Made by a program: the position numbers and the translations under genes
Shown: in pieces, positions 1 through 64,000 of the stretch
Position numbering within the stretch: position 1 is the first letter of the stretch
Layout: each line of letters opens with the position of its first letter
IMG/VR virus record: IMGVR_UViG_3300020417_001527
Location: 1 to 64,000 of that record
Strand: one strand, 5' to 3'
From: a virus
DNA: 64,000 bases
Notes under the pieces: model-generated
Told to the model about the DNA's origin: nothing
The model's database searches: none
The model's input: only the letters and a program-made list of their open reading frames with translations

Positions 1-1695
1 ATGTATAAGAATGTAGACTACGCTATAGAAAGAGATAACATGCGTAACAAGTATGGTTGTGATACCATGTGTACAGCTAAATTCTTTACCAGCACAATAT
101 ATTTACAGAGTGGACAAACACATTCATGTTACCATCCGTTACCACATAATATTCCATTGAATGAACTCAAAGGTAATCCGGGTGCATTGCACAATACCAA
201 ACACAAAATTGAACGCAGACGTCAAATGCTCATGGGCGAAAAGCCTGAAGAATGCAACTACTGTTGGCGTGTAGAAGCAATTGGTGGTCCTGGCGAAGAT
301 CACGGTGGTCTTATTTCAGATAGAATTATTAAAAGTAAAAATGAACTTCTGCTCACACCAGATGCACATGAACAGATACTTGCAAATGGTTGGGATCACA
401 ATTACAGACCCACATATTTAGAAATAAGTTTTGGCAACGAATGTAACATGCGTTGTGCATATTGTCACCCCAAGGCAAGTTCAGCCTGGATGAAAGAAAT
501 GAATCAACATGGACCATTCAAAGACGCAGAACATTTACAAAATTTAGATGAAAAAATTTACCCAGAAGATGATAATCCATATGTAGATGCATTTTGGGAA
601 TGGTGGCCGTATTTGCGAAAAACATTAAAAGTGTTGCGTATCACCGGTGGCGAACCTTTATTGCAACAAAACTTTTGGAAGTTCTTAAAGAAACTGGAAG
701 AAAATGGTATTGGCGAAACCAAAGACCTAGTGCTTCAAGTTAACAGCAACTTCAATGTAAAACCTAAATTGATAAAACGATTCGTTGATTCAATGAATAG
801 AATATTAGATGCAGATCAAGTACGAAGATTTGCCATATACACTTCAATTGAAAGCTGGGGAGATCGAGCAACATACACAAGAAATGGATTGGATCTAAAA
901 CTGTGGGAAGAAAACTTGTATACTGTTATGAAAGGTTTACAAGGACAAATGGCAAAAAAATTCAATGGTGTAACCATTATGAACACATTTAATATCATGT
1001 GTGTCACGAGTTATGTAGACTTTTTAAAGCAAGTAATCAAATGGAGGAACGATCTACACAATGGTATGGATTGGCCCAAAGTGTTGTTTGACATTCCGCA
1101 TTGCACAGAACCAAATCACTGGACACTTGCAGGTTTACCAGATGAGTTTGATGAATACTTTCATCTAGCCACAGCATATTTAGAAACAAAACGCTGGAAA
1201 AATAATTGGGAAAAATATCCAAAAGATTTTCACAATGATGCATATCACAATTATTTCAGTGAAGAAGAAATGGCCGCATGGCAACGTGTGGTTGCAGTTT
1301 GGGAAGATATTAAAAAACAAAGAGGGTCTTTGAGACCCGATCACCATTTAGCACCAAGACAGGTAGATGATGCACGTAGGAATTGGATACTGTTTATTGA
1401 TGCTACAGATAAAAGAAGAGGCACAAATTTTAAAAAGACATTTCCAGAAATGGCTGGTTTCTATGATTTGTGTTCATCTTTGAGACGCATAGAAGATATA
1501 GAATACAATGGTGAAATTAAAAGAGAACTATTAGCAGAGGGGTTAGTTGAATTTCATTGGGACGATGATTTTGTTTGGCATTATCCAGCATTGGCTCAAT
1601 CATTGATAAATCACAGAAAAGTAAATAACCTGCCTACTATAATGTACGACAATGAACAAGAGGTAGCAAGGTTTGGACCAGTTAAGGACAAATAA
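1..1695 (+). CDS. Radical SAM protein with N-terminal twitch-like Cys module (may be 5'-truncated at the window edge)
   Basis: CNMRCAYC motif, ITGGEP, N-terminal CTAKF...SCYHP...CNYC, C-terminal DKRRGTNFKKTFPE. Confidence 0.9.
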   Translation: MYKNVDYAIERDNMRNKYGCDTMCTAKFFTSTIYLQSGQTHSCYHPLPHNIPLNELKGNPGALHNTKHKIERRRQMLMGEKPEECNYCWRVEAIGGPGEDHGGLISDRIIKSKNELLLTPDAHEQILANGWDHNYRPTYLEISFGNECNMRCAYCHPKASSAWMKEMNQHGPFKDAEHLQNLDEKIYPEDDNPYVDAFWEWWPYLRKTLKVLRITGGEPLLQQNFWKFLKKLEENGIGETKDLVLQVNSNFNVKPKLIKRFVDSMNRILDADQVRRFAIYTSIESWGDRATYTRNGLDLKLWEENLYTVMKGLQGQMAKKFNGVTIMNTFNIMCVTSYVDFLKQVIKWRNDLHNGMDWPKVLFDIPHCTEPNHWTLAGLPDEFDEYFHLATAYLETKRWKNNWEKYPKDFHNDAYHNYFSEEEMAAWQRVVAVWEDIKKQRGSLRPDHHLAPRQVDDARRNWILFIDATDKRRGTNFKKTFPEMAGFYDLCSSLRRIEDIEYNGEIKRELLAEGLVEFHWDDDFVWHYPALAQSLINHRKVNNLPTIMYDNEQEVARFGPVKDK

Positions 1696-2929
1696 GGAAC
1701 ATGCACTAAAAGAAAGCAAACACTTTTGTATGGCTCCATGGGTTACAATGCATGCCTGGCCTAGTGGCGAGGCATATCCCTGTTGTGCTATTCAAACACA
1801 AGGTGTAATGAACGGCAAAGGCATGGCCAATCTACATCACTCTTCGTTTGAAGAAGCATGGAACAGCGAAGTCATGCGTAACCTACGCAAATCCGTTCTC
1901 AACGATAAATTTAATCCTATATGCAAAAAGTGTGTTGAAAGTGAACAGACTGGAAACATATGGACTCTGCGTACCAGCCTTAACAACAACTTTGGTGACA
2001 AGCATTGGGAACGAGTGTTAGCAACCAATGAAGATTACACACATGATGATCCTAGAATGTTGTATTGGGATATTAGATTTAACAACCTATGCAACATGAA
2101 ATGCAGAAGCTGTTCTCCAGAGTTCAGCACTCAGTGGCACAAAGATTATATAGAAATGTATGGTGATTCTGGTCGGCCCATGTACAAAGGTTTACCCAAA
2201 AACTTTTGGACAGACATACTGCCAAGGATTACAGAAGTTGAGTATGCCTACTTTGCTGGCGGCGAGCCACTTATAACCGAAGAACACTATCGCATGTTGG
2301 ACACATGGTTGGAAGCAGGCAACTCAGAACTTAAAATTGATTACACCACAAACTTCAGTAAAATGCATTTGGGCAATAAACATGCATTTGACTATTGGAA
2401 CAAACTACCCAATGTAAGTGTGGGTGCAAGTCTTGACGGCACATGGGCCAGAGGTGAATACATACGTGCTGGCACAGTATGGCAAACCATTGTGGACAAT
2501 AGACGTGACATGATGCGTGAATGCCCAGACACCAACTTCTTTCTTTCACCTACCATCAGTCTGTACAACGTTCTACACTTGCCTGACTTTCACAGAGAAT
2601 GGGTAGAAGAAGAACTGATACATGCTAATGCAATCAGTTTGGCAAACACTTTGTTTGAACCTGATTACATGAGGGCACAAAATTTACCTGATGCTTGGAA
2701 GAAACAGGTCAGAGACAAGTATGAAAAACACATAGAATACCTAAATACAATAGGAGCCCACGATACAGAAAAATGGCAAAACATTATAACGTTTGTTGAA
2801 CGCAAACCTGCCAAGTATCATCACATACAGAGATTTATGGATATGAACATAAGACTCGATCAAATACGAAAGGAAAACTTCAGAGAAACGTTTCCGGAGT
2901 TAGTAGGAATAGAAGATGCAGTTAGATAA
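1673..2929 (+). CDS. Twitch-domain radical SAM protein (N-terminal twitch)
   Basis: CMAPW...PCC...CKKC, then CNMKCRSC and FAGGEP; TTG start overlaps the previous stop. Confidence 0.9.
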   Translation: MDQLRTNKEHALKESKHFCMAPWVTMHAWPSGEAYPCCAIQTQGVMNGKGMANLHHSSFEEAWNSEVMRNLRKSVLNDKFNPICKKCVESEQTGNIWTLRTSLNNNFGDKHWERVLATNEDYTHDDPRMLYWDIRFNNLCNMKCRSCSPEFSTQWHKDYIEMYGDSGRPMYKGLPKNFWTDILPRITEVEYAYFAGGEPLITEEHYRMLDTWLEAGNSELKIDYTTNFSKMHLGNKHAFDYWNKLPNVSVGASLDGTWARGEYIRAGTVWQTIVDNRRDMMRECPDTNFFLSPTISLYNVLHLPDFHREWVEEELIHANAISLANTLFEPDYMRAQNLPDAWKKQVRDKYEKHIEYLNTIGAHDTEKWQNIITFVERKPAKYHHIQRFMDMNIRLDQIRKENFRETFPELVGIEDAVR

Positions 2930-4208
2930 AGATTTTCTTTTAAATGAAAGTAAAACATTTTGTCTGTCACCGTGGATACACATGCACGTATGGCCCAATG
3001 GTCGTGCGTTTCCTTGTTGTTTGGCTGATCATCATGATGACAAAGAGTATGGCAACACCAACACAAGCACCTTGAAAGAACTGTGGAATTCAGAAACTGC
3101 TCGTAGACTAAGACGCAACATGCTGAACAACAAACCGTCTCCTGAATGTAAAAGATGTTATAGATTAGAATCAGAAGGTGATGCATACACATTACGCAAG
3201 AACATGAATTACAAATTTAAACATCATTTTGACAAAGTGTTGTCAACCAAAGAAGATGGGCATCATGAAGAAATGAATTTTACATACATGGATTTTCGTT
3301 TCAGTAATCTATGCAACATGTCATGCAGAAGTTGTTCACCCACATTCAGCACACAATGGTATGATGATTTTGTAAAACGTTTTGGATCTGTACCAAAAGA
3401 TTTAGCAGAACGAAAATACATACAACTCAAAAACAAAAAAGGATTTGAAGAAGAGCTGTGGCCTTATTTAGACACAGTTGAAGAAGTGTATTGGGCAGGT
3501 GGTGAACCAATGATCACTGATACACATTGGAAAATAATGAATCATTGGGTAGAAACAGGACATGCTGAAAACATTTCAATTCTGTACACCACAAACTTTT
3601 CTCAACTGGAATATAAAAGACAAAACATACTTGACCTATGGCCTAAATTTAAAAATGTTACAGTTAGTGCCAGTTTAGATGGTATGGGTTCACATGCTGA
3701 ATTTATACGCAAAGGAACTGTGTGGTCAGACATTGAAGCAAACAGACGATTGATGATAGAACGCACACCAGAAATAGAATTTGATATATGCCCAACTGTG
3801 AGTTTGATGAATGTGTTACATCTGCCAGACTTCATTGAAGATTGGACACGCAAAGGATTGATTAAACCTGGTAATGTGCGTATCAACAATCTATTAGATC
3901 CTAATCATTTTTGCACACAAATTTTACCCACTGAATACAAACAGCGAGTTACAAAACGTTGGAAAGAACTGTTGGTATGGGTAGGGTCTTTAGATAACTT
4001 TGATGATTCAAAATGGCCAGCCGCAGAATTTTTAACAGCAGGTAATGGTTTGCTTAAATTTATGAACACAGAACTATCCGAAGAGGATAGTGTTAAGCAT
4101 TTGAAACAATGCAAACAAGAATTTGATCAATGGGATATTATAAGAAATGAAAAGTGGCACGAAGCTATACCAGAACTACAGGATGTGATAGACTTTTCAT
4201 GGCCATGA
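2916..4208 (+). CDS. Twitch-domain radical SAM protein; close paralog of 1673..2929
   Basis: CLSPW...PCC...CKRC, CNMSCRSC, WAGGEP, YTTNFS. Confidence 0.9.
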   Translation: MQLDKDFLLNESKTFCLSPWIHMHVWPNGRAFPCCLADHHDDKEYGNTNTSTLKELWNSETARRLRRNMLNNKPSPECKRCYRLESEGDAYTLRKNMNYKFKHHFDKVLSTKEDGHHEEMNFTYMDFRFSNLCNMSCRSCSPTFSTQWYDDFVKRFGSVPKDLAERKYIQLKNKKGFEEELWPYLDTVEEVYWAGGEPMITDTHWKIMNHWVETGHAENISILYTTNFSQLEYKRQNILDLWPKFKNVTVSASLDGMGSHAEFIRKGTVWSDIEANRRLMIERTPEIEFDICPTVSLMNVLHLPDFIEDWTRKGLIKPGNVRINNLLDPNHFCTQILPTEYKQRVTKRWKELLVWVGSLDNFDDSKWPAAEFLTAGNGLLKFMNTELSEEDSVKHLKQCKQEFDQWDIIRNEKWHEAIPELQDVIDFSWP

Positions 4209-5503
4209 GTAAAACATATTGCTTGTATCCTTTTGTAAATTTAAACAGTAACACAGAAGGTAGTGTCAAGCTATGCTGTAGCATCAATGAAAATATACAT
4301 GCCACTGACAAAGATGGGCGTGAGTTAAACTTTGGTAACAATAGTGTGGAAGAAATATGGAACTCAGATTATATGACAACCATACGCAAACAGTTACTCA
4401 ACGGAGAAAGACCTGAAGCATGTAATGTGTGTTGGAACTTGGAAGATCAAGGCCTGCGTAGCAGTAGGCAAAGTGCGTTTGCAGAATTAAAAGATCGTGG
4501 CTTGTATGCAAAAGACTATCAAGATCCTAATCCACCTTTGCCACAGAGTTTAGAATTACGCTTGGGTAATTTTTGTAACCTGCGTTGCAATAGCTGTTGG
4601 TCATTGAGCTCTGATAGAATATATGATGAACGTTCAAAAATAATGGCACCGGGTCCTATACGCAGAGCAACTCCAGACTGGTTAAAAGATGAATGGAACT
4701 ACGAGCTTGACCTTGCTCGTCAAGCCAATTGGGTATGGTGGGAAAATGAAGAGTTCATTGAAACAATTAGAAAAATTGCCCCCACACTCAAACGATTGTA
4801 TCTCACAGGCGGCGAACCCACACTTATAAAACGCAACACAGAAGTCATGCAAACTATACTTGACTCAGGCAACAAAGACTGTTACATTGCTCTAACAACC
4901 AATCTAACCAATTGGGATGAAAAGTTTTTTAACACAATGTCGCAGTTTAATAACGGAGAACTACAGGTATCTATAGATGATGTTAGAGAAAGAAACGAGT
5001 ACATACGTTTTCCAACCAAGTGGCAAAAGGTAGAAGACAACCTTGCAAAAATTACTGTGACGTTTCCGCAGAGCTGGTTGATTAAACATTACACAGTTTA
5101 TCAAGTGTACAACTTTGATGCTCCAACTCAAATACTGGATTGGTTGCATCATTATAGATCTGGGTTTTCATATGATCGAGGCAGAGTGTACATATGGAGC
5201 CCTATCATATTGGATCATCCAGCATACTTAAATACTAGAATAATACCACTGGAAGTTAGAAAAGAATATGCATATTATCTAAGACAGTACAAACCACCGG
5301 TGCGTATCAAAAACATATGGTATCAACACGGCATAGATCAAGTGTGCAATCTATTAGAAAATGTAGAAGAAATGGAAAATGCAGAAGAGCTTCGATCTAA
5401 GTTTATTGATTATTCTACTGTGTTAGACAGGCAAAGACAGCCTGACAAGAAATGGTATGAGCTGTTTGATTCATTGGCACGAGCATTAAAATATGAGCAA
5501 TGA
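4205..5503 (+). CDS. Twitch-domain radical SAM protein
   Basis: CLYPF...LCC...CNVC, CNLRCNSC, LTGGEP; start placed at ATG 4205 (ATGA overlap) rather than 4154. Confidence 0.9.
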   Translation: MSKTYCLYPFVNLNSNTEGSVKLCCSINENIHATDKDGRELNFGNNSVEEIWNSDYMTTIRKQLLNGERPEACNVCWNLEDQGLRSSRQSAFAELKDRGLYAKDYQDPNPPLPQSLELRLGNFCNLRCNSCWSLSSDRIYDERSKIMAPGPIRRATPDWLKDEWNYELDLARQANWVWWENEEFIETIRKIAPTLKRLYLTGGEPTLIKRNTEVMQTILDSGNKDCYIALTTNLTNWDEKFFNTMSQFNNGELQVSIDDVRERNEYIRFPTKWQKVEDNLAKITVTFPQSWLIKHYTVYQVYNFDAPTQILDWLHHYRSGFSYDRGRVYIWSPIILDHPAYLNTRIIPLEVRKEYAYYLRQYKPPVRIKNIWYQHGIDQVCNLLENVEEMENAEELRSKFIDYSTVLDRQRQPDKKWYELFDSLARALKYEQ

Positions 5504-7670
5504 TGGAACCTACATAGAAGATCGCAGTACTGTCACTCAGCGAGTGATGGAGCAGTACAGCAAAGGCCGACAAAAAGGCCTACAAGATATTGTGATTGAT
5601 CGTGATTATAATCGTAAAACTTCACTAGCACTTGTGATGTGTCCAGAGTGGGATCCAGGTTTCCCGCACTACAGCATTGCCAAATTGGCTGGAGTGGCCA
5701 AGTCAGCAGGTTATAGAACCAAAGCATATGATCTAAATGTTGAAGCATATCATAATTGGGAAACCAACGACGAATGGGGTTTGGAATGGCAACCGTGGGA
5801 CGGTCCAAGAGATTGGCATTGGTTAGGAGAACAGTACTGGAAAGATTTACATGAATTTGTGAAACCTGTGTTGGATCTAGCAATAGATGACATCTGCAAA
5901 TTCAAACCTGACTTTGTTGGGTTCAGTTTATACTATTGCAACAAAGAACCCACAGACTACATGATCAAAGAAATTAAAAAACGCAGACCTGATACACAGA
6001 TTATTATAGGTGGTCCACAAACACACTATTCTTGGTTTAAGCCAGAACCATGGTATGAAATTGTTGTGCAAGGCGAAGGCGAACAGGCAATACTGAATAT
6101 TCTTAACGCACAGGAAATGAAAACAGGGTTTACATTTTCAGAACAGAAAGACAAATCAAAAATAATTAGGCAGGATGAATCTGTTAGATTTTCATTGGAC
6201 AATCTGCCATTTCCTGACTATTCAGACATGCAGTTTGAAAAATACAGATTTGGAGATGGTGCTCTGTGTGCCATATCAAGAGGTTGTGTTGCCAAATGCA
6301 CATTCTGTGAAGAAACACACTATTACAAATACAGACAGCGTACCGCAGTAAGCACACTAGATGAAGTACGACACATGTATCACACCTATGGCTCTCGTGT
6401 GTTTTATTTTGTTGATAGTTTAGTAAATGGTAATTTAAAAGAACTTCGAGCGTTTGTGGAAGGCGTTAAAGCAGAAGGCATGGGCGACATCAAATGGTCA
6501 GGCTATTGTCGACATGATGGGCGTATGGATTTAGAATACATGCAGGCACTCAAAGATGGCGGTTGCGAAGTGCTTAACTATGGAACTGAATCAGGCTCAG
6601 AAAGTGTGCTACTGGCAATGGACAAAAAAGTTACACTTCCAGAAATGGAGCAAAATTTTATTGATGGACACAAAGTAGGCATCAAATCAATGACCAATTG
6701 GATTGTGGGTTTTCCAAATGAAACACCCAAAGACCTTGAAGATACATTTACGCTGTGCTGGAGAGTAAGACATCATGGTTTATATCAGATGAGTCAAGGC
6801 ACAGGATTTAATGTGGGTGTGGATACCATCGTAGGACAGGACATGCGAAAGTATGGATTGTTTCCTTTCTATTATTACGGACATTGGATGAAAGCAGATC
6901 AAACAGCAAGTATTGTACACAAGTTGATCAAAATGAAAACATTCTCTATGTTCACTGATATAATTGCAAGTAATTTATATCCGTCAGAAGGATATTATGG
7001 CATTGGAGAAGGTGGTGTACCTCATACTCCTAGAAGACGCAATCTAGCAGAACGTCATTACACCATAGAATTCAATGACTGGCATCTACAAAAAGAAATT
7101 GAATACGACTATGCTGATTTTGATTACAACATCATTAAACCAGGTATAAGTAACTTTGCAGACAGCCTTGTGAATGAAATATGGCCTTTCCTAAGAATAT
7201 GTTGGCGTGCCAGAGGCGGATACAAACTTAACCTCAAATTTGTCAAGGAATGGGAATACGAAGAGTGGGGAGACAGAAATGCGGCTCCACTGGATGCAAA
7301 CTATGATTTTGAAATTGATGATGACGGAAATTGGGAAGCATACTTTTGGTGGGATTATCAACAGGACCAAGTTGGTTTTGAATGGGTAGATGAACCAATT
7401 GGCAATGGACCTGAGTCACATATTTACAAAATAAATCATTTGCAGAATGATGTGTATCAAAATGTTAATTTTCATCAAGAGGTATCCAGCTCGGTTGTGC
7501 GAGCTCGTAGGCTGGCATGGAAAGGACAAGACTATTACAAAGAACGTGATCCATATAAAGCGTTTGATAAAATAGAATGGATGAATGATAAAAATATATT
7601 TGCAAAATGGAGAACACATGATTTCAGTTTCAAGTATCAATGGAAAGGCTCAGGCAAGTGGACAAACTAG
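5493..7670 (+). CDS. Cobalamin (B12)-binding radical SAM protein, class B methyltransferase-like
   Basis: N-terminal B12-binding motifs (VGFSLY, IIIGGPQ, QGEGE), SRGCVAKCTFC, YGTESGS, IVGFPNET. Confidence 0.88.
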   Translation: MSNDGTYIEDRSTVTQRVMEQYSKGRQKGLQDIVIDRDYNRKTSLALVMCPEWDPGFPHYSIAKLAGVAKSAGYRTKAYDLNVEAYHNWETNDEWGLEWQPWDGPRDWHWLGEQYWKDLHEFVKPVLDLAIDDICKFKPDFVGFSLYYCNKEPTDYMIKEIKKRRPDTQIIIGGPQTHYSWFKPEPWYEIVVQGEGEQAILNILNAQEMKTGFTFSEQKDKSKIIRQDESVRFSLDNLPFPDYSDMQFEKYRFGDGALCAISRGCVAKCTFCEETHYYKYRQRTAVSTLDEVRHMYHTYGSRVFYFVDSLVNGNLKELRAFVEGVKAEGMGDIKWSGYCRHDGRMDLEYMQALKDGGCEVLNYGTESGSESVLLAMDKKVTLPEMEQNFIDGHKVGIKSMTNWIVGFPNETPKDLEDTFTLCWRVRHHGLYQMSQGTGFNVGVDTIVGQDMRKYGLFPFYYYGHWMKADQTASIVHKLIKMKTFSMFTDIIASNLYPSEGYYGIGEGGVPHTPRRRNLAERHYTIEFNDWHLQKEIEYDYADFDYNIIKPGISNFADSLVNEIWPFLRICWRARGGYKLNLKFVKEWEYEEWGDRNAAPLDANYDFEIDDDGNWEAYFWWDYQQDQVGFEWVDEPIGNGPESHIYKINHLQNDVYQNVNFHQEVSSSVVRARRLAWKGQDYYKERDPYKAFDKIEWMNDKNIFAKWRTHDFSFKYQWKGSGKWTN

Positions 7671-33221: not shown

Positions 33222-33242
33222 TTGTGTTAAGCAGAAGGAATC

Positions 33243-33620: not shown

Positions 33621-33624
33621 AACA

Positions 33625-41993: not shown

Positions 41994-42004
41994 AAGTTAA
42001 ACTC

Positions 42005-50675: not shown

Positions 50676-51366
50676 GTATATTCCATTGTCTAATATAAGG
50701 TTTCAAAATATTGTTAAAAAACTTTTCTGCTCCCTTTTCGTTTGGGTGCAATTCATCTTGTTGCATGTCATCTCCATTGGATTTTACCCAATCCACATAG
50801 CCAAAATCTGTGTAGATGACACCAAACTGATCAAAACGATCTGTAATTTTTGTCCATATATCATCAGGCACAGCACCAGTCCAGCCTCTAAACACAATAA
50901 CTTGACATTGCAAAGCACACAAACAGATCAATGCAACAACATTTTCTAATGTAGCATTGAAACTTGTTACAAGATTTTCATGAACTTGCCCACCCCAACC
51001 GGATACAATTTTTGTATCAGTGAACATAGCAGGAGATTCTAATGTAAATTTTTGTTTATCAGGAAACATAGATTTAACCAATTGGAAATATTTTTCATCT
51101 GCTAATACTTCTAGTCGTTGCCAACCACTGAGTTGCCAAATCACATATGTGTTATCCAAGCCTTGATTAATTATATGTCTGTTCAATTGATGTGCATTAA
51201 CTGTGTTGCCTCTGCCACCCTTGGCAAAGTGTATGTGGTTTGATCCAGGAAGTAATTTATCTTTGTCGTAGCCTTTATAAAAAAGTTCTTCCCACAACAA
51301 TTCATACGACCACCTTGGCCAAGTCTGTATAGGAGATAAACTACAACCTAGTGTGACCAGTTTCAT
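50665..51366 (-). CDS. SGNH/GDSL hydrolase-like protein
   Basis: LGCSLS, GGRGN, QLS..QR, DELHPN. Confidence 0.6.
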   Translation of the reverse strand: MKLVTLGCSLSPIQTWPRWSYELLWEELFYKGYDKDKLLPGSNHIHFAKGGRGNTVNAHQLNRHIINQGLDNTYVIWQLSGWQRLEVLADEKYFQLVKSMFPDKQKFTLESPAMFTDTKIVSGWGGQVHENLVTSFNATLENVVALICLCALQCQVIVFRGWTGAVPDDIWTKITDRFDQFGVIYTDFGYVDWVKSNGDDMQQDELHPNEKGAEKFFNNILKPYIRQWNIHAN

Positions 51367-56812: not shown

Positions 56813-56844
56813 TCTTGGTTAGACTCCTTGTATGATAATTATAT

Positions 56845-57696
56845 ATGTATTTAACGGAGATGTCAATGCTAAAAACACAAATTGCAATAGATCCAGAAGC
56901 AAGATGCTCAAACAAACTGGATTATCATTACTATGGTCCAAATGATAACATCTATGATACCATGTATGAAGCATTTGAATCAGGTGAACCTGTAATCATA
57001 GACGGTCACACAGTAGATGGTATTGACATGGACTATTATAGTAATTTACCTGAGTGGTACACAGACAAGAATGCTTGGGTGAAGCCATGGTATCTGTCAG
57101 ATCTAAAACGTGAACCCATGCCTGCTAGTACCAAAGATATGGGATTAGACGGAGAAGAGTTTTTAAAACGACATAGAAAAGATCAAAAGCATTGGGACGC
57201 ATTTTTTGATCAATGTTTTCCAAAATACACAGTAAATGCTCGTATGCTTTCGCACAGATACAATCAACTGGTGCAAAACAATCTGCACTTGGATTTGCCA
57301 GATGAAGAACACACAGGCAACGACCATCAAATACGCATGTTTCTAAATTTGGATCGTAAAAAGCCACGCATACTTGCATTCAGTTACAGCGTAGAACAGT
57401 ATTTTAGATTGTACTATGATGAAAAAAGTCTTGACCAATTGGATAAAACCAACTATCATTCTTTTATAAAAGAACTGCGTGACAGATGTATTTGGAACGA
57501 AGACAAATGGGATCAGTTTCATTTGCCACGCCATTACATTACGTTTCCTCCTGGCTCTATGTGGTTTTTTAATGCACAATGGATTTCACATCAAATTATA
57601 TTTGGTAACAAACTGCAATGCTACGAAGCTGATATAGAAGTAGACAGTCTACAGTTTCCAGAACTAGGTGTGCCTAACAGAATTGCACAGCTATGA
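56845..57696 (+). CDS. Kdo hydroxylase (KdoO)-like Fe(II) oxygenase
   Basis: LHLD...IRMFLNL, FPPGSMWF, ISHQIIFG. Confidence 0.6.
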   Translation: MYLTEMSMLKTQIAIDPEARCSNKLDYHYYGPNDNIYDTMYEAFESGEPVIIDGHTVDGIDMDYYSNLPEWYTDKNAWVKPWYLSDLKREPMPASTKDMGLDGEEFLKRHRKDQKHWDAFFDQCFPKYTVNARMLSHRYNQLVQNNLHLDLPDEEHTGNDHQIRMFLNLDRKKPRILAFSYSVEQYFRLYYDEKSLDQLDKTNYHSFIKELRDRCIWNEDKWDQFHLPRHYITFPPGSMWFFNAQWISHQIIFGNKLQCYEADIEVDSLQFPELGVPNRIAQL

Positions 57697-58403
57697 TTTG
57701 GATTGTTTCTAAATCTGGCATGTCTGCACAATTTTTAGAAGCATGTATCAATAATGTAGATTTATGTTCAGACCAAAAGCATTATGATTTAATCCAAACA
57801 CCATGTAAATTTGGATATTTTTTAGAACTTAATCACGATTGGGGAGGTACCTATGTGCCTTTAAAAAGGACAACCCAAGAAGCATGGAACGATGAATGGT
57901 ATGATGGATTTAGTCGTGCAAAAAGTATTGCTGAAAGCAAAGGACACAATGCTCTGTTTACACACAGGCATGATAAAGAACTTATTCAATGGATGAAGGA
58001 AGCAGGAGACTCAGTAATTGTACTGCGACATGTAAATCATTTGCCACTGTGGATTTGTCGTGAATCTGTGCTAGATGAAAAGTATGAAAAGACTGTGGGC
58101 TACTTCTTACAAAAATTAAAAAGTCGTCTTATAGAATTAGATACAATGCCTGATCACATCAGCGAACAACCATATCTAGATCAGAACGATTTTTTAACAC
58201 TTGCTACCAGACAGTTACAAAAATTAGCACCCTGTATGGATATTGAACTTTTTAGACACAACTTGAATTACTATGTGCCAGCAAATTTAAAAGGCATTAC
58301 AAAATGGGATATGATGACAGAAATAATAATCAAATATCATTCAAGTAATCCATTAATTGCATGGGGTTATGATGATTTAATCAACACTGATCTCACTTTT
58401 TAA
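57693..58403 (+). CDS. Hypothetical protein, possibly P-loop/sulfotransferase-like
   Basis: MIWIVSKSGMSAQFL N-terminal loop; ATGA overlap. Confidence 0.45.
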   Translation: MIWIVSKSGMSAQFLEACINNVDLCSDQKHYDLIQTPCKFGYFLELNHDWGGTYVPLKRTTQEAWNDEWYDGFSRAKSIAESKGHNALFTHRHDKELIQWMKEAGDSVIVLRHVNHLPLWICRESVLDEKYEKTVGYFLQKLKSRLIELDTMPDHISEQPYLDQNDFLTLATRQLQKLAPCMDIELFRHNLNYYVPANLKGITKWDMMTEIIIKYHSSNPLIAWGYDDLINTDLTF

Positions 58404-59621
58404 TCTTGCAAATTCAGGCGACACTTTCATAACATCATCATCTCTAAATTTATCATGCACTTCTGTAACACGCACATAGTCACGCATGTGACTTTCATTG
58501 TATATGTGTTTAGGATCTTCTGCAAAGTTTACACAATCCATTAGAGCTTCTTGCCAGGTTTCAAAGTGTTCGCTGTTGCCTATTTTGTGTAACAGCTTTT
58601 CTATTTTACGCTTTTGTTCTTTCTTTAACCAATCAGGTGCATGTTGCATACTGTAGTAGGCTGGCTCAATGAGTTGGTTACTGCTGAGTCCTATACCACG
58701 CTTCTGTGTTATTTGATAGTCATGTAAAAACTCAAAGAAGTCAGGCAGGTGTAGTGCGTTTGTAATTTGATTAACAGTGGTTACACGCACCTTAATACGT
58801 TTGCCTGCTTTGGTACTTGCAAAGTCCATTAACTTGGTAAAGTTTTTCCAAACTGAATCCCAGTTGCTTGGAGGACGCAGATAATCATTCATAGCACCCA
58901 TGCCTTCAAGTGAACAGTTTACCACAACACGTTTGAACTGTCCTAGTTGTTCTAGCCAACGATCCTGCATGTTTGTGATGTTTGTATAAAATGACAGTTC
59001 AATATTTTTTGCATAATCGTTTGCTGTGCAATAGTCCAACAGACGAAACATATCTGGAAAGACTGTGGGCTCACCACCAATCATTTTTATTTCACGAGCA
59101 TGTGGTATCATGGGTTCAAATGTGTTCCAATCAATGCCCGGTTGTAGCAGAGCTTCTTTTTTGTTGTCAGTTACACGTTCCCAGTCTTCATGCTGTACAG
59201 GTGCACCATACTTTTCTTTTATTTTTGCACGTTCGACGCTAACCAAATGTGATGCATCTTTGTTGCACATTTGACAATGTAGGTTGCACATGTTACCCAA
59301 ACGAAAGTCAAACTGCACAGGACTGGATACATTTTCATCTAGTGTTGCTGTGTAGTCTTGCCATTTTTGATTTTCCCATTGTCTACTCGATCCAATACCA
59401 TTGCGTTCCAAGTGTTGACATTCTGAGCATTCAGGCCTCCACTTGCCAGCCAACATGTCTTTGCGAACCTCTTTCATGTAATCAGAGTTCCATATTTGTT
59501 CCATGCTTAGATGATTTTGGTTTAATTCTTCAGCAGGTTCTTTGGCCATACAACAAAGTCTATAACGCCCATGGTTATAGGTGCTGTACTGCACAAAAGG
59601 TAATGCACAGTAACCACTCAT
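58377..59621 (-). CDS. Twitch-domain radical SAM protein
   Basis: CALPF...LCC...CSEC, CNLHCQMC, MIGGEP. Confidence 0.9.
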   Translation of the reverse strand: MSGYCALPFVQYSTYNHGRYRLCCMAKEPAEELNQNHLSMEQIWNSDYMKEVRKDMLAGKWRPECSECQHLERNGIGSSRQWENQKWQDYTATLDENVSSPVQFDFRLGNMCNLHCQMCNKDASHLVSVERAKIKEKYGAPVQHEDWERVTDNKKEALLQPGIDWNTFEPMIPHAREIKMIGGEPTVFPDMFRLLDYCTANDYAKNIELSFYTNITNMQDRWLEQLGQFKRVVVNCSLEGMGAMNDYLRPPSNWDSVWKNFTKLMDFASTKAGKRIKVRVTTVNQITNALHLPDFFEFLHDYQITQKRGIGLSSNQLIEPAYYSMQHAPDWLKKEQKRKIEKLLHKIGNSEHFETWQEALMDCVNFAEDPKHIYNESHMRDYVRVTEVHDKFRDDDVMKVSPEFARLKSEISVD

Positions 59622-60637
59622 CGATGTTTCCTTGTACGCATGTCAGTGGCATTCATACAGCGTGGCTGTTCACAGATGTAAGGCTCAGTGGGCCAATTTA
59701 GTTTATCCAATTGATCCAATCTACCTATCTTATCTGGGTGTGACCAATTGGCCTGTGGACACCATGATCCTGCTGTAATTTCTTTGAACTGATTAATAAA
59801 AATTTTATCTATACCTATGTAACATTTCATGCCTGTAAAAACATTATGATTTTGATTTATGTTTCTGTTTGCATGTAGTAGTTCTTCTTTGCCATCGCTG
59901 TATGTAATTATGTGTGGCACACCTATACGCTTTGGTTTGGCTCTAGGCAATGTCCATTCAGAATTATATGTGTTAAACAGAGCATAAGTTTGTAATATGT
60001 GTTCCTGTTCTTCTGTGTAAGGATAACTTTTAGCACCAAATTCAATTCGCATACGCTTGAGGCTCACTGGATAACCATTGCTGTTACTGGCTAATAATTC
60101 AGCACATGCAATAGACTTATCCCAAAGCTCGGGCAGTATAGCAACCAGCACATTTAGTTCATTTACGCCTGGTTTATAGAATGTGTGTGCTACATCTAGT
60201 AGGTGTTCTGGGTCGCACGATTCAATATGCACACTTAGATTAACTGTGTCAATTAGATCTCCGTAACGTTCCCACCAACGCACGGTGCGTGATCCATTTG
60301 TAATTACGCTGATTAAATTTTCTGTATTGTGTTTTTTGATGGCTTGCAAAAACTTATTAAAGTTTGGCATCACAGTTGGCTCACCTCCACTCAACACATA
60401 CTGTATGGGTCGCTGAAAATGATTGTGCATTGCATCCAGTATTTCCAACCATTTGTCTTCTGTGGGCCATGGTTGTTTGCCGTCATGCAACGGAGGAGGA
60501 CAATATGAACAAGCATAGTTACAGGTTGTACCCATGCTCCAATCTACAAGTGCAATATTCTTCTGTGGTACAATGCTGACAATATCAGGCAAATTGTTCT
60601 GCAAATGCATCAAATTTGTCTCCACACTTCTGAGCAC
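59618..60637 (-). CDS. Radical SAM protein with C-terminal twitch module
   Basis: CNYACSYC, LSGGEP, FTGMKC...WC...CEQPRCMNATD. Confidence 0.9.
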   Translation of the reverse strand: MLRSVETNLMHLQNNLPDIVSIVPQKNIALVDWSMGTTCNYACSYCPPPLHDGKQPWPTEDKWLEILDAMHNHFQRPIQYVLSGGEPTVMPNFNKFLQAIKKHNTENLISVITNGSRTVRWWERYGDLIDTVNLSVHIESCDPEHLLDVAHTFYKPGVNELNVLVAILPELWDKSIACAELLASNSNGYPVSLKRMRIEFGAKSYPYTEEQEHILQTYALFNTYNSEWTLPRAKPKRIGVPHIITYSDGKEELLHANRNINQNHNVFTGMKCYIGIDKIFINQFKEITAGSWCPQANWSHPDKIGRLDQLDKLNWPTEPYICEQPRCMNATDMRTRKHR

Positions 60638-61682
60638 ACACTCCTAGTTTACCAGATTTAATACTGTCTTTGTTCCAACTGTTTTTTATACTACCAAGTA
60701 TACCACTTTCAAAAACTGTTTCTAGTCCGTGTACTTTACAATCAATGACATCTTTGCCACCTACACCATCTATGTGATCCCAAATTTGTTCTACTTTAGG
60801 ATCCAACTGCCACCATTTGTACATGCGTCCTGCTGTCCAACAGCAAGGCAACAGCAATCCTTCTGCTGTGATATAGATGTTCTTTTCTTCTGCTACCTTG
60901 CATTTAATTTTACATGAATCGTAATAATCCATCATTGAACCAAATTGATTTTTAATTTCTTCTTCTTTGGCAAGTGCTTTGTTTTGATATGCTTCATTTT
61001 TTGGTTTTGCCAGAGTTGCAGTATCTTCGCCTTTTCTGTTCTGTGCTTGATGTGTTTCTTTGCCTGTGTTTTTTGCTGTACTAAAAAACCTGCCAGTTTT
61101 CTTTGCTCTAAACTTTTCAAAACCCCAAGCCATTGCCATGCCTTCTGCGTCTTCCACTTGATGTTCATTGTAGTCAAATATGATGTAATCCCATCTAGCT
61201 CTACCACCTGCATCTATAAAACTTGTAAATGAACGCTCTACAATATCCCAACGCACATTCTGTCTGTACATGTGATTTGTGTCTTCAAGTCCATCCAATG
61301 AGAATATAACTGCACCCATACGACCATAAACTCGTGCAAGTTCACGCCACCAATCTGGATCTTTTGCTCCGCCGTTTGTGTTCATGCTCAGCCAAATTTT
61401 AGGATTGTGTTGTCTAAAGTATTCAAATATTTCTAGTGTGTCACGTGCCACAATAGGATCACCCAAGTTGCCACACATATACATTGTATTAAGTTGTTGT
61501 ATAAATTTTGGTTCAAATATTGCTTTAGCATCATCTAGTGTAAGTTCAGCATTTGTGATATGTCGATTGTCGCGACCGCCATTTTCATTGCGATCACACA
61601 TAGGGCAAGCCGCCTGGCACCTTTGTGTAACTTCCAAATGTACCATTTTAATATCGTTGTAGCTATACACTTTGTTTACCAA
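60585..61682 (-). CDS. Radical SAM/SPASM protein; unsplit relative of the split pairs
   Basis: CQAACPMC, MCGNLGDP, NTNGG, C-terminal C...LPCC...CAQKC. Confidence 0.9.
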   Translation of the reverse strand: MVNKVYSYNDIKMVHLEVTQRCQAACPMCDRNENGGRDNRHITNAELTLDDAKAIFEPKFIQQLNTMYMCGNLGDPIVARDTLEIFEYFRQHNPKIWLSMNTNGGAKDPDWWRELARVYGRMGAVIFSLDGLEDTNHMYRQNVRWDIVERSFTSFIDAGGRARWDYIIFDYNEHQVEDAEGMAMAWGFEKFRAKKTGRFFSTAKNTGKETHQAQNRKGEDTATLAKPKNEAYQNKALAKEEEIKNQFGSMMDYYDSCKIKCKVAEEKNIYITAEGLLLPCCWTAGRMYKWWQLDPKVEQIWDHIDGVGGKDVIDCKVHGLETVFESGILGSIKNSWNKDSIKSGKLGVCAQKCGDKFDAFAEQFA

Positions 61683-63168
61683 GCAACCTTTCTATAATTG
61701 CACTTTCATGTTTTTGTGTTTTGTTGTTAAACTGATCTACACTTATGATGCTGGGCTCATCATCCATCAACACAGCCATTTCTGGAAATGTTTTACAGAA
61801 GTCTAAGTTTCTAGTTTTATCAATGAGTCGTATGTATTCTCTAAACTGTGGCATACGTCTGCTCCAGTCTTCACTTTTCATAAAATTGATCATGCCACGC
61901 ATACGTTCTATGCCGTGACTTGCATTCATAAAATCGTCCTTGGTTACTTTCCCTCGGTACCAACTTGGTATTCCTAATTCCCAATTTTCTTCCCACCATG
62001 TATAAAACTTTTCATACTTGATTTCTGTTTGCTGTTTGAACCATAATGGCAATGTCTTTACATTCAAAGGAGCAGGCCAATAAACAAAATGTGTGTTCAC
62101 ACTTCCTGCTGAAAAAGGCCACATGTTTACTTTTGTAAAGCCTTGTTGCAGTTTCCATTTGAAAAAATCTGGCAGATAATATATGTTCAATGCATTAACG
62201 GCACAGGCCAGAGTTACTTCAACATTGTCTGTGGTTTCGTTGTTAAGTTTCCATATCTGTCTAACTTGATGATTCCAATCGCTGGGGTAACGTATGTAAT
62301 CATTCATTGCACCTATGCTGTCTAAACTGTAATGAAAACGCACCAGTTTAAAATGACTCCACAGTTCAAACAAATCATCACGCCATTCAACAGCATTTGA
62401 ATTGTAACGCAGTTCTAAATTAGGTGCATGTCCACTTTCAATTATTTTTTCTAATATTGTGTAGTGTTCATCCATCACAGTTGATTCACCACCAGCAAAA
62501 TAAAGTTGTAGCATGTTTGGTATCTGTTTCCAAAACTGCTCCCAAAACTTGTCATTGCTTTTGTGCCAATTGTAACTGGCGTTAAAGTTTTTACCTTTGT
62601 TTTCCCAATTCCATATTTCTTTAAGTTCAGGATCTTTCAGTTGTGGATACATTTTGTTCCACTCTTTGACCCAACCTGATGAATCATGTGGTGAACACAT
62701 AACACAGGCAAGTTGACATTTAGTACCCATACGCAAATCTATGTAACGCAGTTTGGTTGGTATGCTACCATCTGTTTCTGTTTCTTTGAGCATTTCATCA
62801 ATATCAATGCGTTTGCTCCAATAGTTTGTTTCCCATTGGCGTTTGCTGTGATGTCCTGCATCTTCTTCTTTGTAGCACTTCATACAGGAAGGAGGTCGCT
62901 GTCCTTTCAACATCATCTGTCGTGTGCCACGCATGTACGAATTGTTCCACGAACTTTCAAGGTCAGAGTTGTTTAAATTGGCTGGTATACCCTCCTCTGT
63001 ACGCAGTACACCCACCTGTCCTCCAAACTCTTTGTCGTTGGTTACACCAACACTACTGGCGTTTGCTGTACAGCATACACGCATAGCACCGTCAGGACGA
63101 GTGCTTAAATGTATCCATGGCAACACACAAAATGTATCGCTGGGTGGTGTAAAACGTTTCTTGGTCAT
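61663..63168 (-). CDS. Twitch-domain radical SAM protein
   Basis: CVLPW...VCC...CMKC, CQLACVMC, FAGGE, DKTR..DF..TFPE; TAAATA-N5-ATG upstream. Confidence 0.9.
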   Translation of the reverse strand: MTKKRFTPPSDTFCVLPWIHLSTRPDGAMRVCCTANASSVGVTNDKEFGGQVGVLRTEEGIPANLNNSDLESSWNNSYMRGTRQMMLKGQRPPSCMKCYKEEDAGHHSKRQWETNYWSKRIDIDEMLKETETDGSIPTKLRYIDLRMGTKCQLACVMCSPHDSSGWVKEWNKMYPQLKDPELKEIWNWENKGKNFNASYNWHKSNDKFWEQFWKQIPNMLQLYFAGGESTVMDEHYTILEKIIESGHAPNLELRYNSNAVEWRDDLFELWSHFKLVRFHYSLDSIGAMNDYIRYPSDWNHQVRQIWKLNNETTDNVEVTLACAVNALNIYYLPDFFKWKLQQGFTKVNMWPFSAGSVNTHFVYWPAPLNVKTLPLWFKQQTEIKYEKFYTWWEENWELGIPSWYRGKVTKDDFMNASHGIERMRGMINFMKSEDWSRRMPQFREYIRLIDKTRNLDFCKTFPEMAVLMDDEPSIISVDQFNNKTQKHESAIIERLLGKQSV

Positions 63169-63176: not shown

Positions 63177-63470
63177 TTACTGATTCATTTTCTCTACACG
63201 CATTGACTTACTGCAATTTTCAACACACAATGGAGGTGGTGTAGTGTTCCAATTATCTGTGTTCCAATGCTCTGTGAAAGGTTTGCTTTTTAATATAGCA
63301 GTCAATTTGTGTTTGTTAATATCATTCCAATCGCTGGGCAGATTATCTATGTAGTCGTCTCCTGTACAGCCAAATCTATTTGCGGCCGCACTATAAAAAC
63401 AGCAAGGCCATACACGACCTTCTGTGTCTAATTTTATTTCTTTTTCACGCAGAGCTAGACAATCAATCAT
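63177..63470 (-). CDS. Stand-alone twitch/SPASM-like domain; split partner of 63467..64000
   Basis: C...WPCC...TGD.YID.LP.DWND...CVENC; strongly similar to 32024..32353. Confidence 0.78.
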   Translation of the reverse strand: MIDCLALREKEIKLDTEGRVWPCCFYSAAANRFGCTGDDYIDNLPSDWNDINKHKLTAILKSKPFTEHWNTDNWNTTPPPLCVENCSKSMRVEKMNQ

Positions 63471-64000
63471 TGCAATATGCTCCGTGCTTGTTCTATCATA
63501 TCGTTTGCCTTTGATATATTTGCATCAGCAATCAATCCATATTCTCTATCTTGGAATTTAAAATCAATGCCTATGTTATACTGTTTAGCAATTCTGGCCG
63601 CTTCTGGTATCTGTTGCCAGTTCCAATCAAATATAAGAAAGTCCCATGAACAACCTCCTTCATGACAATGTTGTGCAAATGTTATCATGTTATCCATTGC
63701 ACGTTCAAAGTTAACTCGCTTTCTGTACAGATCATTTACTTCTGCTGTGGTTCCATCTATAGAAAAAACCAAGTGTCCAAACGGATCTAATGTTTCTGCT
63801 AGTTTAACATAGAAGTCTTTGTTTCGCAAGCCTCCATTTGTGTGAACAAGAACTGTGTTTTCCTGTCTGTGTCTAACATAACGAATAATATCAAATATCT
63901 GTGGGTGCATCATTGGATCGCCAAATTCACCACACAATTTTATTTTGTAATCTTTGCCATGTGGAATATTATTTTTGATCCATCGTATAACAGTTTCAAA
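63467..64000 (-). CDS. Radical SAM protein (5' end lies beyond the window)
   Basis: Frame open to the window edge; LCGEFGDPMMHP, HTNGG, FSIDG, WDFLIF match the rSAM half of 30645..32027; the CxxxCxxC motif is outside the window. Confidence 0.8.
   Translation of the reverse strand, partial: FETVIRWIKNNIPHGKDYKIKLCGEFGDPMMHPQIFDIIRYVRHRQENTVLVHTNGGLRNKDFYVKLAETLDPFGHLVFSIDGTTAEVNDLYRKRVNFERAMDNMITFAQHCHEGGCSWDFLIFDWNWQQIPEAARIAKQYNIGIDFKFQDREYGLIADANISKANDMIEQARSILQ

Follow-up and report, generated by a model that had tools for sequence, protein, structure and literature searches.

What would a virus do with twenty radical S-adenosylmethionine (SAM) genes? The question is raised by the IMG/VR virus record IMGVR_UViG_3300020417_001527, a contig of 85,789 bp. 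Its positions 1-64000 are the whole stretch of DNA analysed here (hereafter the window; G+C content 38.5%, 98.7% coding), and they hold an island of radical SAM genes set among genes for sugar-nucleotide and tailoring enzymes. To our knowledge, characterised pathways usually use one to a few radical SAM enzymes. We propose, at odds a little better than even, that the island is a multi-step pathway for one or more unusual sugars, which it would both synthesise and heavily modify, in part at least while they are nucleotide-activated. Twelve of its enzymes belong to one catalogued family, N_Twi_rSAM, which carries most of the argument below.

The number of radical SAM genes was established by a six-frame motif scan of the window, in which C...C..C was found in 20 open reading frames (ORFs) of at least 90 amino acids (aa). 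Two of these (54890-55201 and 60945-61232, both on the plus strand) are antisense shadows inside real genes, which leaves 18 complete genes, and with the shadows removed the scan agrees with the original count of 18 complete CxxxCxxC ORFs and a nineteenth cut by the edge of the window. The CxxxCxxC motif is present in 18/18 of these genes, and the nineteenth has it too once completed on the contig. After 500 rounds of residue shuffling of 74 gene products, a mean of 0.21 and a maximum of 2 ORFs carried the motif, against 19 observed. The island had also been expected to continue at both edges; this holds on the right, where the nineteenth gene is completed on the contig and a twentieth follows beyond the window, while the left edge of the window is the end of the contig. 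All the radical SAM genes match Pfam Radical_SAM and/or SPASM, or else NF033640 (N_Twi_rSAM, twitch domain-containing radical SAM protein) in a full-length match that exceeds the curated 170-bit cut-off. With Radical_SAM (PF04055, gathering score 29.5 bits), 13 genes score above the gathering value, three at 27.3-29.4 and one at 23.0 bits. The pair at 1673-2929 and 2916-4208 matches SPASM only in Pfam and scores high with NF033640, a model that includes the core (Table 1).

All-against-all BLASTP divided the 20 genes of the contig into four families, A (n=12), B (n=3, with C-terminal Cys residues), C (n=4) and a single B12-binding radical SAM protein. None of 10 representatives scanned, chosen to cover all four families, reached an NCBIfam equivalog cut-off. 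The set is therefore not a collection of known cofactor enzymes, and the paralogs do not resolve into unrelated, well-characterised cofactor families.

Family A corresponds to N_Twi_rSAM. Its 12 genes score 185-411 bits with NF033640 over model positions ~1-398, whereas the other eight radical SAM genes of the contig stay below 45 bits and match the core only. All 12 share an N-terminal Cys module followed by CxxxCxxC; in Pfam this module appears as a SPASM-like match at residues 10-100, before the CxxxCxxC at ~100-150. In an alignment of 54 N_Twi sequences, three Cys (C9, C77 and C80) are invariant and another two (C27 and C28) at least 90% conserved, and the pattern C-x17-CC-x(36-61)-CxxC (middle spacer ~45) precedes CxxxCxxC in 10 of the 12 genes. 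The remaining two, 54523-55779 and 1-1695, keep at least four Cys each in the module with altered spacing. The seven-Cys motif of SPASM domains, CX9-15GX4C...CX2CX5CX3C...C located C-terminal to the core, was not found in the N_Twi proteins, which conserve 4-5 Cys, lack CX2CX5CX3C and carry the domain at the N-terminus; the Pfam SPASM matches cover the part that is common to twitch domains. A profile of the N-terminal 110 aa of the 12 paralogs, searched against 177,635 PDB sequences, gave a sole match, the C-terminal twitch domain of BtrN (E 1.6e-6; next match E 0.23), with the Cys columns aligned to those of BtrN.

BtrN is the 2-deoxy-scyllo-inosamine dehydrogenase of butirosin biosynthesis (PDB 4M7S/4M7T), and its twitch domain binds one auxiliary [4Fe-4S] cluster. 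Both BtrN and the N_Twi genes stand in a sugar/cyclitol gene context. The order of the domains is reversed: the twitch domain follows the core in BtrN (residues 163-241 of ~250) and precedes it in N_Twi. The cores are not specifically related either, and BtrN is not among the top fold matches of N_Twi. In the AlphaFold model of 45080-46252 (pLDDT 96) the core has its nearest fold neighbours in anSME, SkfB, BlsE and viperin (Z 12.6-13.8), none of which is a close relative, and no close one has been solved. By similarity of the twitch domain, N_Twi enzymes may thus carry out a BtrN-type oxidation of a secondary alcohol. In the literature we found no description of the NF033640 family or its arrays, nor any tested member.

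The N_Twi paralogs are 20-38% identical to one another and 75-87% identical to their orthologues in a related contig, G001. In a maximum-likelihood tree of 100 N_Twi proteins the 12 paralogs of the window fall into at least 10 separate groups or orthogroups, and 11 label changes are needed for 12 genes. The adjacent genes 1673-2929 and 2916-4208 are the only recent duplicate pair within the genome (38% identity; sisters in the tree). Most groups hold members from Bdellovibrionota, with SH-aLRT support of 93-100 (100 for the clade of 61663-63168); the orthogroup of 1-1695 is common to the related contig G004 and a Bdellovibrionota gene, and 51363-52541 and 52520-53740, which are 85% and 75% identical to their G001 orthologues, group with Bdellovibrionota at supports of 99 and 95. 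The paralogs are thus old, individually conserved and shared as a set, which is the pattern expected of a multi-step pathway.

A link between the family and sugars comes from gene fusions, on the logic that domains fused elsewhere suggest a shared pathway. Within 2,191 clusters at 50% identity (E<=1e-30), the N_Twi family includes many metagenomic tandem N_Twi-N_Twi fusions of ~800 aa. An EvaA-type nucleoside diphosphate (NDP)-hexose 2,3-dehydratase is fused to an N_Twi_rSAM in P0065 and P0392, two metagenomic proteins that are independent of each other (66% identity; data sources Logan and JGI), with the EvaA part matching PDB 4J7G at E 4e-103. This fusion suggests that NDP-deoxyhexoses are substrates for at least one N_Twi subfamily. 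N_Twi fusions were noted in P0001, P0003, P0012, P0019, P0065 and P0392. One of the metagenomic proteins joins a homologue of the conserved gene 49152-50675 to two N_Twi domains; for 49152-50675 and its homologues, a profile finds no PDB relative. The N-terminal extension of P0110 gave no match in our search.

The second line of evidence is the company that the radical SAM genes keep. A block of NDP-sugar genes lies at 11136-19256, and an amidinotransferase, an N_Twi_rSAM and a protein resembling pyridoxal phosphate (PLP)-dependent aminotransferases form a trio of adjacent genes at 53643-56812 (Table 1). The amidinotransferase profile matches StrB1 and also HsvA, SxtG and AGAT, with the catalytic H336 and C337 of its GGIHC motif invariant; the PLP assignment of the third member is weak. 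The trio is adjacent also in six Bdellovibrionota loci (L011, L012, L016, L021, L026 and L031). A glycosyltransferase of GT-A fold is predicted at 27524-28228, whose Foldseek matches listed from the PDB are GT-A enzymes (WrtF, RmlT, SunS, ArnC, GtrB and PBCV-1 A64R), with TM-scores of 0.32-0.47 among matches at E<=0.001. For the protein labelled A5, the sequence profile gave noise only and a fold search was required. The gene 27524-28228 ranks among the most conserved of the phage clade: its homologues at 65-70% identity form over 4000 clusters and lie on contigs of up to 353 kb, some of them on contigs of 319-353 kb. Together with its neighbour 28225-29172 it is kept in G002-G004 and in Bdellovibrionota loci. 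Homologues of the carbamoyltransferase and of the Asp/Asn hydroxylase adjoin N_Twi arrays in 10 and 9 Bdellovibrionota loci, respectively, and those of the possible oxygenase at 56845-57696 are found in three.

The radical SAM genes had been described as interleaved with sugar-nucleotide enzymes, glycosyltransferases, methyl-, acetyl-, carbamoyl-, amidino- and sulfotransferase-like genes and Fe(II) oxygenases. Most of this list holds, the acetyltransferase being a GNAT protein; glycosyltransferases are few, and the sulfotransferases fall away. No Sulfotransfer family match was obtained in any scan, and the only trace of a sulfation toolkit is a 142-aa P-loop protein resembling adenosine 5'-phosphosulfate (APS) kinase. 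Four paralogs with a Gly-rich loop are class I methyltransferases instead; their profile matches cyclopropane fatty acid (CFA) synthase (E 3e-5) and CalS10 (E 2e-4), and they are interleaved on the plus strand (30026-36102) with a 2-oxoglutarate (2OG) oxygenase/radical SAM fusion and a phosphoribosyltransferase.

The gene set recurs in relatives. Four related IMG/VR contigs, G001-G004, carry 7-14 NF033640 matches each. G001 is collinear with positions 42005-77699 of the contig at 63-87% aa identity, G002 runs parallel to 23179-46252 at 45-87% but is inverted, and the more distant G003 and G004 keep a core gene set. Tail-fibre genes, a baseplate hub/lysozyme gene and a gene for a virion structural protein of 4000-4900 aa (phrog_10938, E 0) border the island in G004 and G002, and by synteny with G002 the left end of our window would lead toward this giant virion gene. 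In both contigs the giant ORF is followed by an ORF of ~1170 aa, directly beside the radical SAM island. The first ~7 kb of G001 and G002 encode near-identical proteins (tree branch lengths 0.003-0.02), and by this measure the two contigs appear to be overlapping pieces of one phage, ~104 kb together.

The same genes co-occur outside phages. Species genomes of GTDB were searched with two conserved peptide patterns taken from a 10-sequence alignment, patterns which bias the genomes found, and the matches were overwhelmingly from Bdellovibrionota, some on contigs of megabase size. In an even sample of the phylum, 26 of 121 Bdellovibrionota genomes hold the N_Twi family in 1-12 copies; these counts are minimum values, and the 12 copies of the phage fragment equal the highest of them. 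The Bdellovibrionota loci also contain homologues of family B, family C, the Asp/Asn hydroxylase, the carbamoyltransferase and five proteins without Pfam assignment. The gene set resides on chromosomes of predatory Bdellovibrionota too. The giant virion gene is absent from the N_Twi-bearing Bdellovibrionota genomes checked, and genes common to phage and Bdellovibrionota are not evidence that Bdellovibrionota are the host. Two contigs of the metagenome-assembled genome (MAG) Gammaproteobacteria MED685, C3 (NZGL01000008.1; L009/L072) and C12, carry N_Twi arrays 55-80% identical to those of the phage and are probably misbinned phage, because the giant virion gene sits beside the arrays. Loci L010 (Crocinitomicaceae MAG) and L027 (Neisseriaceae MAG) resemble the MED685 contigs in gene content.

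Of the three substrates proposed originally, a sugar or glycan, a protein or peptide, or DNA bases, the first is the best supported, by the NDP-sugar block, the GT-A enzyme, the StrB1-like amidinotransferase, the match between twitch domains and the EvaA fusion; the other two gained no support. From the gene content, family assignments, conservation and fusion observed, we infer a pathway that would run as follows. In an N-twitch enzyme, a 5'-deoxyadenosyl radical would abstract a specific C-H hydrogen of the sugar, with the [4Fe-4S] cluster of the twitch domain as electron acceptor, as in BtrN, and the outcome, reached without oxygen, could be conversion of C-OH to a ketone, epimerisation, or dehydration/rearrangement. 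Other enzymes would take up the keto or amino intermediates; the trio might oxidise, transaminate and amidinate one position to give a guanidino sugar. Further groups may be added by the C-, N- or O-methyltransferases, the B12 radical SAM protein, the carbamoyltransferase, GNAT protein, amidotransferase and Fe(II)/2OG hydroxylases, and the GT-A glycosyltransferase would pass the product to an acceptor. Since the island adjoins tail-fibre and giant virion-protein genes in relatives, we speculate that a virion protein may receive the product, or else the infected cell's envelope. Virion proteins as the destination are suggested only by the tail-fibre genes nearby, both here and in Aeromonas phage 332-Vera (PMC12390700); the product could also end up in the envelope or as a free metabolite.

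Several observations weigh against a sugar pathway. We could recognise no more than two candidate glycosyltransferases, of which one is borderline and the other is identified only by a fold of modest TM-score, and no sugar nucleotidyltransferase, flippase or polymerase was found in 86 kb. The desaturase, the AspH/LpxO-type hydroxylase and the protein resembling a 3-deoxy-D-manno-oct-2-ulosonic acid (Kdo) hydroxylase would act just as plausibly on lipids or proteins. The EvaA fusion, seen in two clusters and one subfamily, is rare, and the step from the twitch domain to BtrN-like oxidation of sugars is one of analogy. About 25 proteins of the window have no assignable function, and a relaxed Pfam scan of ten conserved proteins without assignment returned sub-threshold hints only. 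When GT2 and DegT genes were used to locate the canonical O-antigen-type cluster of three Bdellovibrionales genomes, the main arrays proved to lie elsewhere, and only some array sites are within 2-13 kb of a GT2 gene; this placement neither supports nor excludes a glycan role.

The alternative that survives best, although we consider it unlikely, is that the island makes a free, diffusible small molecule, aminoglycoside-, aminocyclitol- or nucleoside-like and bearing guanidino, carbamoyl and methyl groups, which infected cells and predatory Bdellovibrionota would direct at competitors or prey. The nearest relatives of the amidinotransferase (StrB1, HsvA and SxtG) all belong to small-molecule pathways, BtrN, the sole solved relative of the twitch domain, is an aminocyclitol dehydrogenase, and antibiotic clusters typically contain enzymes such as the carbamoyltransferase, DegT aminotransferase, methyltransferases and B12 radical SAM protein seen here. 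The small number of glycosyltransferases, the lack of polymer-export genes in the Pfam scans and the sharing of the cassette by two kinds of bacterial killers point the same way. Against this, no exporter, resistance gene or scaffold enzyme (inositol or 2-deoxy-scyllo-inosose synthase) was recognised, the most conserved gene outside the radical SAM set has a glycosyltransferase fold, and in relatives the island adjoins tail-fibre and virion-protein genes.

This last arrangement, with a virion protein of 4000-4900 aa beside the island, would also suit a modification of proteins, which we hold to be somewhat less probable again: tail fibres, the giant virion protein or the precursor of a ribosomally synthesised and post-translationally modified peptide (RiPP) could be epimerised, cross-linked or methylated, and residues hydroxylated by the oxygenases would then be glycosylated. 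The fold neighbours of the N_Twi core include anSME, SkfB, CteB, SuiB, ChlB and EpeE (Z 11.5-13.8), the best matches of the B12 radical SAM protein, all sub-threshold, are RiPP enzymes, and Asp/Asn hydroxylase and prolyl-4-hydroxylase (P4H)-type 2OG domains act on proteins in other systems. In addition, 332-Vera carries 8 radical SAM genes within a structural cluster (PMC12390700). However, Pfam scans of the island revealed neither a RiPP recognition element (RRE) or PqqD domain with a neighbouring precursor, as maturases of RiPPs have, nor a leader peptidase or peptide transporter. The N-terminus of N_Twi, where a RiPP recognition domain would sit, is taken up by the twitch domain, and the fusion partner found is an NDP-sugar enzyme. 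One candidate precursor, a 125-aa ORF at 33243-33620 (plus strand), has a weak match to the NHLP leader (TIGR03793, E 0.018, at 33399-33515); its 11.6 bits are far under the cut-off of 50.9, NHase_alpha (PF02979) gave nothing and the ORF has no orthologue in relatives, including the collinear G002, so that it was rejected as RiPP evidence.

A third possibility, modification of lipid or lipopolysaccharide (LPS; lipid A, Kdo or core) in the envelope of the infected cell, by which superinfection would be blocked, appears improbable. The Asp/Asn-hydroxylase family, present here, includes LpxO and OlsC. A membrane fatty-acid-desaturase-family protein, a weak match to Kdo hydroxylases, a match to GT8, the family of LPS core transferases, and a PagP gene annotated near the N_Twi genes of Vibrio phage K566 are also in line with it, but all these matches are weak or generic, most of the recognisable genes encode NDP-sugar, amino-sugar and amidino enzymes, and 12 distinct N_Twi enzymes would be left unexplained. 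Hypermodification of the phage's own DNA bases is the least credible reading, with very little in its favour beyond the general use by phages of radical SAM enzymes (e.g. QueE) and sugar transfer in DNA modification and the phosphoribosyltransferase, orotidine monophosphate (OMP) decarboxylase and PurA genes farther along the contig, since Pfam scans of 86 kb detected no thymidylate-synthase-like hydroxymethylase, DpdA/TGT, QueC/QueD, DNA glycosyltransferase or base kinase and the same cassette sits on Bdellovibrionota chromosomes.

Table 1 Features of the radical SAM island and its relatives. Positions are those of the contig, which equal those of the window up to 64000, unless another contig is named; bits refer to the model named.
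Position	Strand	Feature	Radical SAM family	Evidence
1-1695	+	N_Twi_rSAM, 564 aa, at contig end	A	CxxxCxxC at residue 148; NF033640 257.9 bits
1673-2929, 2916-4208	+	N_Twi_rSAM pair	A	N-terminal SPASM residues 16-87; NF033640 354, 377 bits
4154-5503	+	N_Twi_rSAM, 449 aa	A	SPASM 23-94, Radical_SAM 137-300; NF033640 307 bits
5493-7670	+	B12-binding radical SAM (class B type), 725 aa	B12-binding	B12-binding 34.3 bits (cut-off 32.1), Radical_SAM 51.7 bits
7640-8650	+	Radical SAM, 336 aa	B	Radical_SAM 34.5 bits; paralog of 59618-60637 and 40827-41993
8595-9953	+	N_Twi_rSAM, 452 aa	A	SPASM 31-101, Radical_SAM 145-300; NF033640 296 bits
11136-19256	mixed	NDP-sugar block		Pfam matches, e.g. Epimerase E 3e-39 and Methyltransf_14 E 3e-21
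11136-12656		UDP-Glc/GDP-Man dehydrogenase-like		Pfam
12647-13822		NDP-hexose C-methyltransferase, TylC3-type		Pfam
14529-15185		Methyltransferase		Pfam
15182-16090		NAD epimerase/dehydratase		Pfam
16942-18012		DegT aminotransferase		Pfam DegT E 1e-66
17990-18910	-	NAD epimerase/dehydratase, second		Pfam
18882-19256	-	Cupin		Pfam
21335-22012	+	PhyH dioxygenase		Pfam PhyH E 1e-16
22023-22451	+	APS-kinase-like P-loop protein, 142 aa		APS_kinase E 1e-7
23179-24741	+	Carbamoyltransferase		Carbam_trans_C E 1e-51
25934-26647	-	GT8-like glycosyltransferase, borderline		Glyco_transf_8 24.2 bits (cut-off 24.3)
27524-28228	+	GT-A-fold glycosyltransferase (predicted)		Invariant DxD; no Pfam match; AlphaFold pLDDT 90.8
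28225-29172	+	Conserved protein, core pair with 27524-28228		No Pfam match
30026-30712, 32340-33221, 33779-34726, 35464-36102	+	Class I SAM methyltransferases, four paralogs		blastp paralogy; DxGCG motif I
30645-32027	+	2OG-Fe(II) oxygenase and radical SAM fusion	C	2OG-FeII_Oxy_3 residues 104-189, Radical_SAM 228-395
32024-32353	+	Small C-terminal-domain gene, 109 aa		Matches C-terminal part of full-length family C proteins
34944-35474	+	Phosphoribosyltransferase		Pfam E 2e-15
36081-36539	+	GNAT acetyltransferase		Pfam
37500-38261	-	Membrane fatty-acid-desaturase-family protein		Pfam
39476-40849	-	Asparagine-synthase-like amidotransferase		Pfam
40827-41993	-	Radical SAM, most conserved gene of the system	B	Radical_SAM 57.1 bits
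45080-46252, 46249-47220	-	N_Twi_rSAM pair	A	NF033640 399, 185 bits; orthogroup common to Bdellovibrionota
47198-47953	-	Asp/Asn beta-hydroxylase-family Fe(II)/2OG oxygenase		Asp_Arg_Hydrox E 5e-14
51363-52541, 52520-53740	-	N_Twi_rSAM pair	A	NF033640 301, 239 bits
53643-54554	-	PLP-aminotransferase-like, 303 aa (trio; weak)		Aminotransferase E 0.03-0.08; invariant DxA, SxxK
54523-55779	-	N_Twi_rSAM (trio)	A	NF033640 above cut-off
55754-56812	-	Amidinotransferase (trio)		Profile with four homologues against PDB: StrB1 E 5.7e-40
56845-57696	+	Possible Fe(II)/2OG oxygenase		Kdo_hydroxy E 0.0019, 18 bits, below cut-off
58377-63168	-	Four-gene radical SAM run		The next four rows
58377-59621	-	N_Twi_rSAM	A	NF033640 306 bits
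59618-60637	-	Radical SAM	B
60585-61682	-	Radical SAM	C
61663-63168	-	N_Twi_rSAM	A	NF033640 411 bits
63177-63470	-	Small C-terminal-domain gene, 97 aa		Paralog of 32024-32353 (42% identical)
63467-64000	-	19th radical SAM gene, cut by window	C	On contig 63467-64153, 228 aa; CxxxCxxC at residue 21
74614-75645		20th radical SAM gene, past window, full-length	C
G004 56170-71016 (L100:2170-17016)		Giant virion gene, 4948 aa		phrog_10938 and head-closure-like segment
G002 56876-68920		Giant virion gene, 4014 aa		phrog_10938

Among the radical SAM genes outside family A, the family B gene at 40827-41993 is 73-78% identical to its counterparts in G002-G004 and 59-67% in Bdellovibrionota loci, and its neighbour clusters in the ESM Atlas are 88-100% viral. 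The genes starting at 60585 and 61663 form the core most widely common to other phages and Bdellovibrionota; identities of the first are 62-67% in likely misbinned phage contigs and 43-48% in Bdellovibrionota loci, and those of the second reach 63% and 58%, respectively. The protein of 5493-7670 has the N-terminal B12-binding domain and radical SAM domain of Class B (cobalamin-dependent) enzymes, its NCBIfam matches (ApyD, BchE and a RiPP C-methyltransferase family) are all sub-threshold, and no homologue was found in G001-G004. In the fusion protein of 30645-32027, an oxygen-dependent 2OG domain and an oxygen-sensitive radical SAM domain are joined in one frame. Its best match in G002, 18484-19065 (193 aa), aligns over 193 residues only, and the whole fusion is unmatched there. 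Two small genes, each placed after a short family C gene, match the C-terminus of the full-length protein of 74614-75645, so that family C appears to have been split twice. Between the Asp/Asn hydroxylase gene and the conserved gene 49152-50675 lies a 399-aa homologue of ATP-dependent phosphoenolpyruvate (PEP) carboxykinase (47953-49152, minus strand; PEPCK_ATP E 5e-91), which looks like a recent insertion from central metabolism because the collinear G001 has no counterpart.

The source is an uncultured marine tailed phage, with the window covering ~64 kb of its auxiliary island. The contig is a virus record in IMG/VR with a CheckV completeness of 25%, which for 85.8 kb gives a genome of ~340 kb; this estimate and the virion structural genes of G004 place it with the tailed jumbo phages (Caudoviricetes, >200 kb). 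No capsid or terminase gene is present on the 85.8-kb fragment itself. Beyond the window the contig encodes a DUF2201 metallopeptidase/VWA protein, an AAA ATPase and a 5'-3' exonuclease, and the best tblastn matches of the DUF2201 and AAA genes are the cultured jumbo phages CMSTMSU, PA5oct, Phosso and SCTP-2 (~40% identity). Together with the virion genes beside the island in G004, these findings bear out the view that the DNA is viral. Neither the window nor the relatives yielded any tRNA gene, and tRNAs thus give no host clue. Farther along (67844-84459) are genes for OMP decarboxylase, a TctA tricarboxylate transporter subunit, two phosphoribosyltransferases, a full-length adenylosuccinate synthetase (PurA; E 4e-154) and a second UDP-Glc dehydrogenase-like protein.

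The contig is not a chimera of assembly, since near-identical DNA recurs in other studies and the relatives are syntenic. Sixteen metagenome runs of marine or seawater origin, dated 2014-2024, contain near-identical DNA (at least 60% of sampled 31-mers); they belong to 9 studies, and the likely source study is at most one of these, the other 8 or more being different. The phage clade is abundant and persistent in seawater. Short metatranscriptome contigs from three studies (four libraries) match 14-22 of the 30 bins into which 40001-60000 was divided, at 90-99% identity, which is no more than compatible with expression; DNA carry-over is possible and the contigs cannot rank genes.

Arrays of radical SAM genes have precedents in phages. 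The Campylobacter phages CP220 and CPt10 combine 11-12 radical SAM genes with sugar enzymes and a putative amidinotransferase (Timms et al. 2010, PMC2853527), and 332-Vera has its eight inside the structural and tail-fibre gene cluster (PMC12390700); both arrays are unexplained. Like the source of our contig these are large phages with many radical SAM genes, but the present island is larger (20 genes on the contig) and belongs to an unrelated, uncultured marine clade of ~340 kb. The CP220 proteins reach at best 30.9 bits with NF033640 and are not members of the family, the likeness being one of organisation only. Cultured phages hold few and distant N_Twi relatives: Ralstonia phage RsoM2USA has two, Vibrio phage K566 has two NF033640 genes over the cut-off and three near it, and KVP40-like phages give weak matches. 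Among enzymes, DesII, BlsE and AprD4 perform radical SAM chemistry on TDP-sugars, glycosides and sugar nucleosides, and BlsE, DesII and AprD4 are structural neighbours of N_Twi (Z 12.9, 9.7 and 8.4). They share no sequence family with N_Twi, lack an N-terminal twitch domain and occur singly in their characterised pathways, not as ten or more. The trio recalls the logic of streptidine biosynthesis (dehydrogenase, aminotransferase, StrB1), in that a StrB1 homologue, a PLP-like protein and a putative oxidising enzyme are adjacent; the oxidation would differ in being a radical SAM reaction instead of that of an NAD dehydrogenase, and no cyclitol synthase or kinase was recognised.

The NF033640 family and phages rich in radical SAM genes were already known; new here are the link between the N_Twi and BtrN twitch domains, the EvaA fusion, the GT-A fold, the orthogroup tree and the assignments of the amidinotransferase and methyltransferases. 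A bolder version of the sugar pathway can be offered only tentatively: N_Twi enzymes may be an undescribed class acting on nucleotide-sugars, of which at least ten members, working in sequence and some of them physically coupled, to judge from the tandem fusions found elsewhere, convert a hexose to a hypermodified guanidino/C-methyl/carbamoyl sugar on tail fibres or the giant virion protein, as a surface-glycan system common to phages and predatory Bdellovibrionota. Targets for study are offered by the conserved trio, the conserved core, two cultured phages with small arrays and a fusion that names a candidate class of substrates. Radical SAM enzymes perform some of biology's hardest C-H chemistry, and one virus fragment holds 20 of their genes, of which 12 diverged long ago within a single family that counts its metagenomic relatives in thousands. 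If N_Twi enzymes do act on nucleotide-sugars, this would open a new area of sugar biochemistry and would explain why some large phages hoard radical SAM genes, as first reported for CP220 in 2010.

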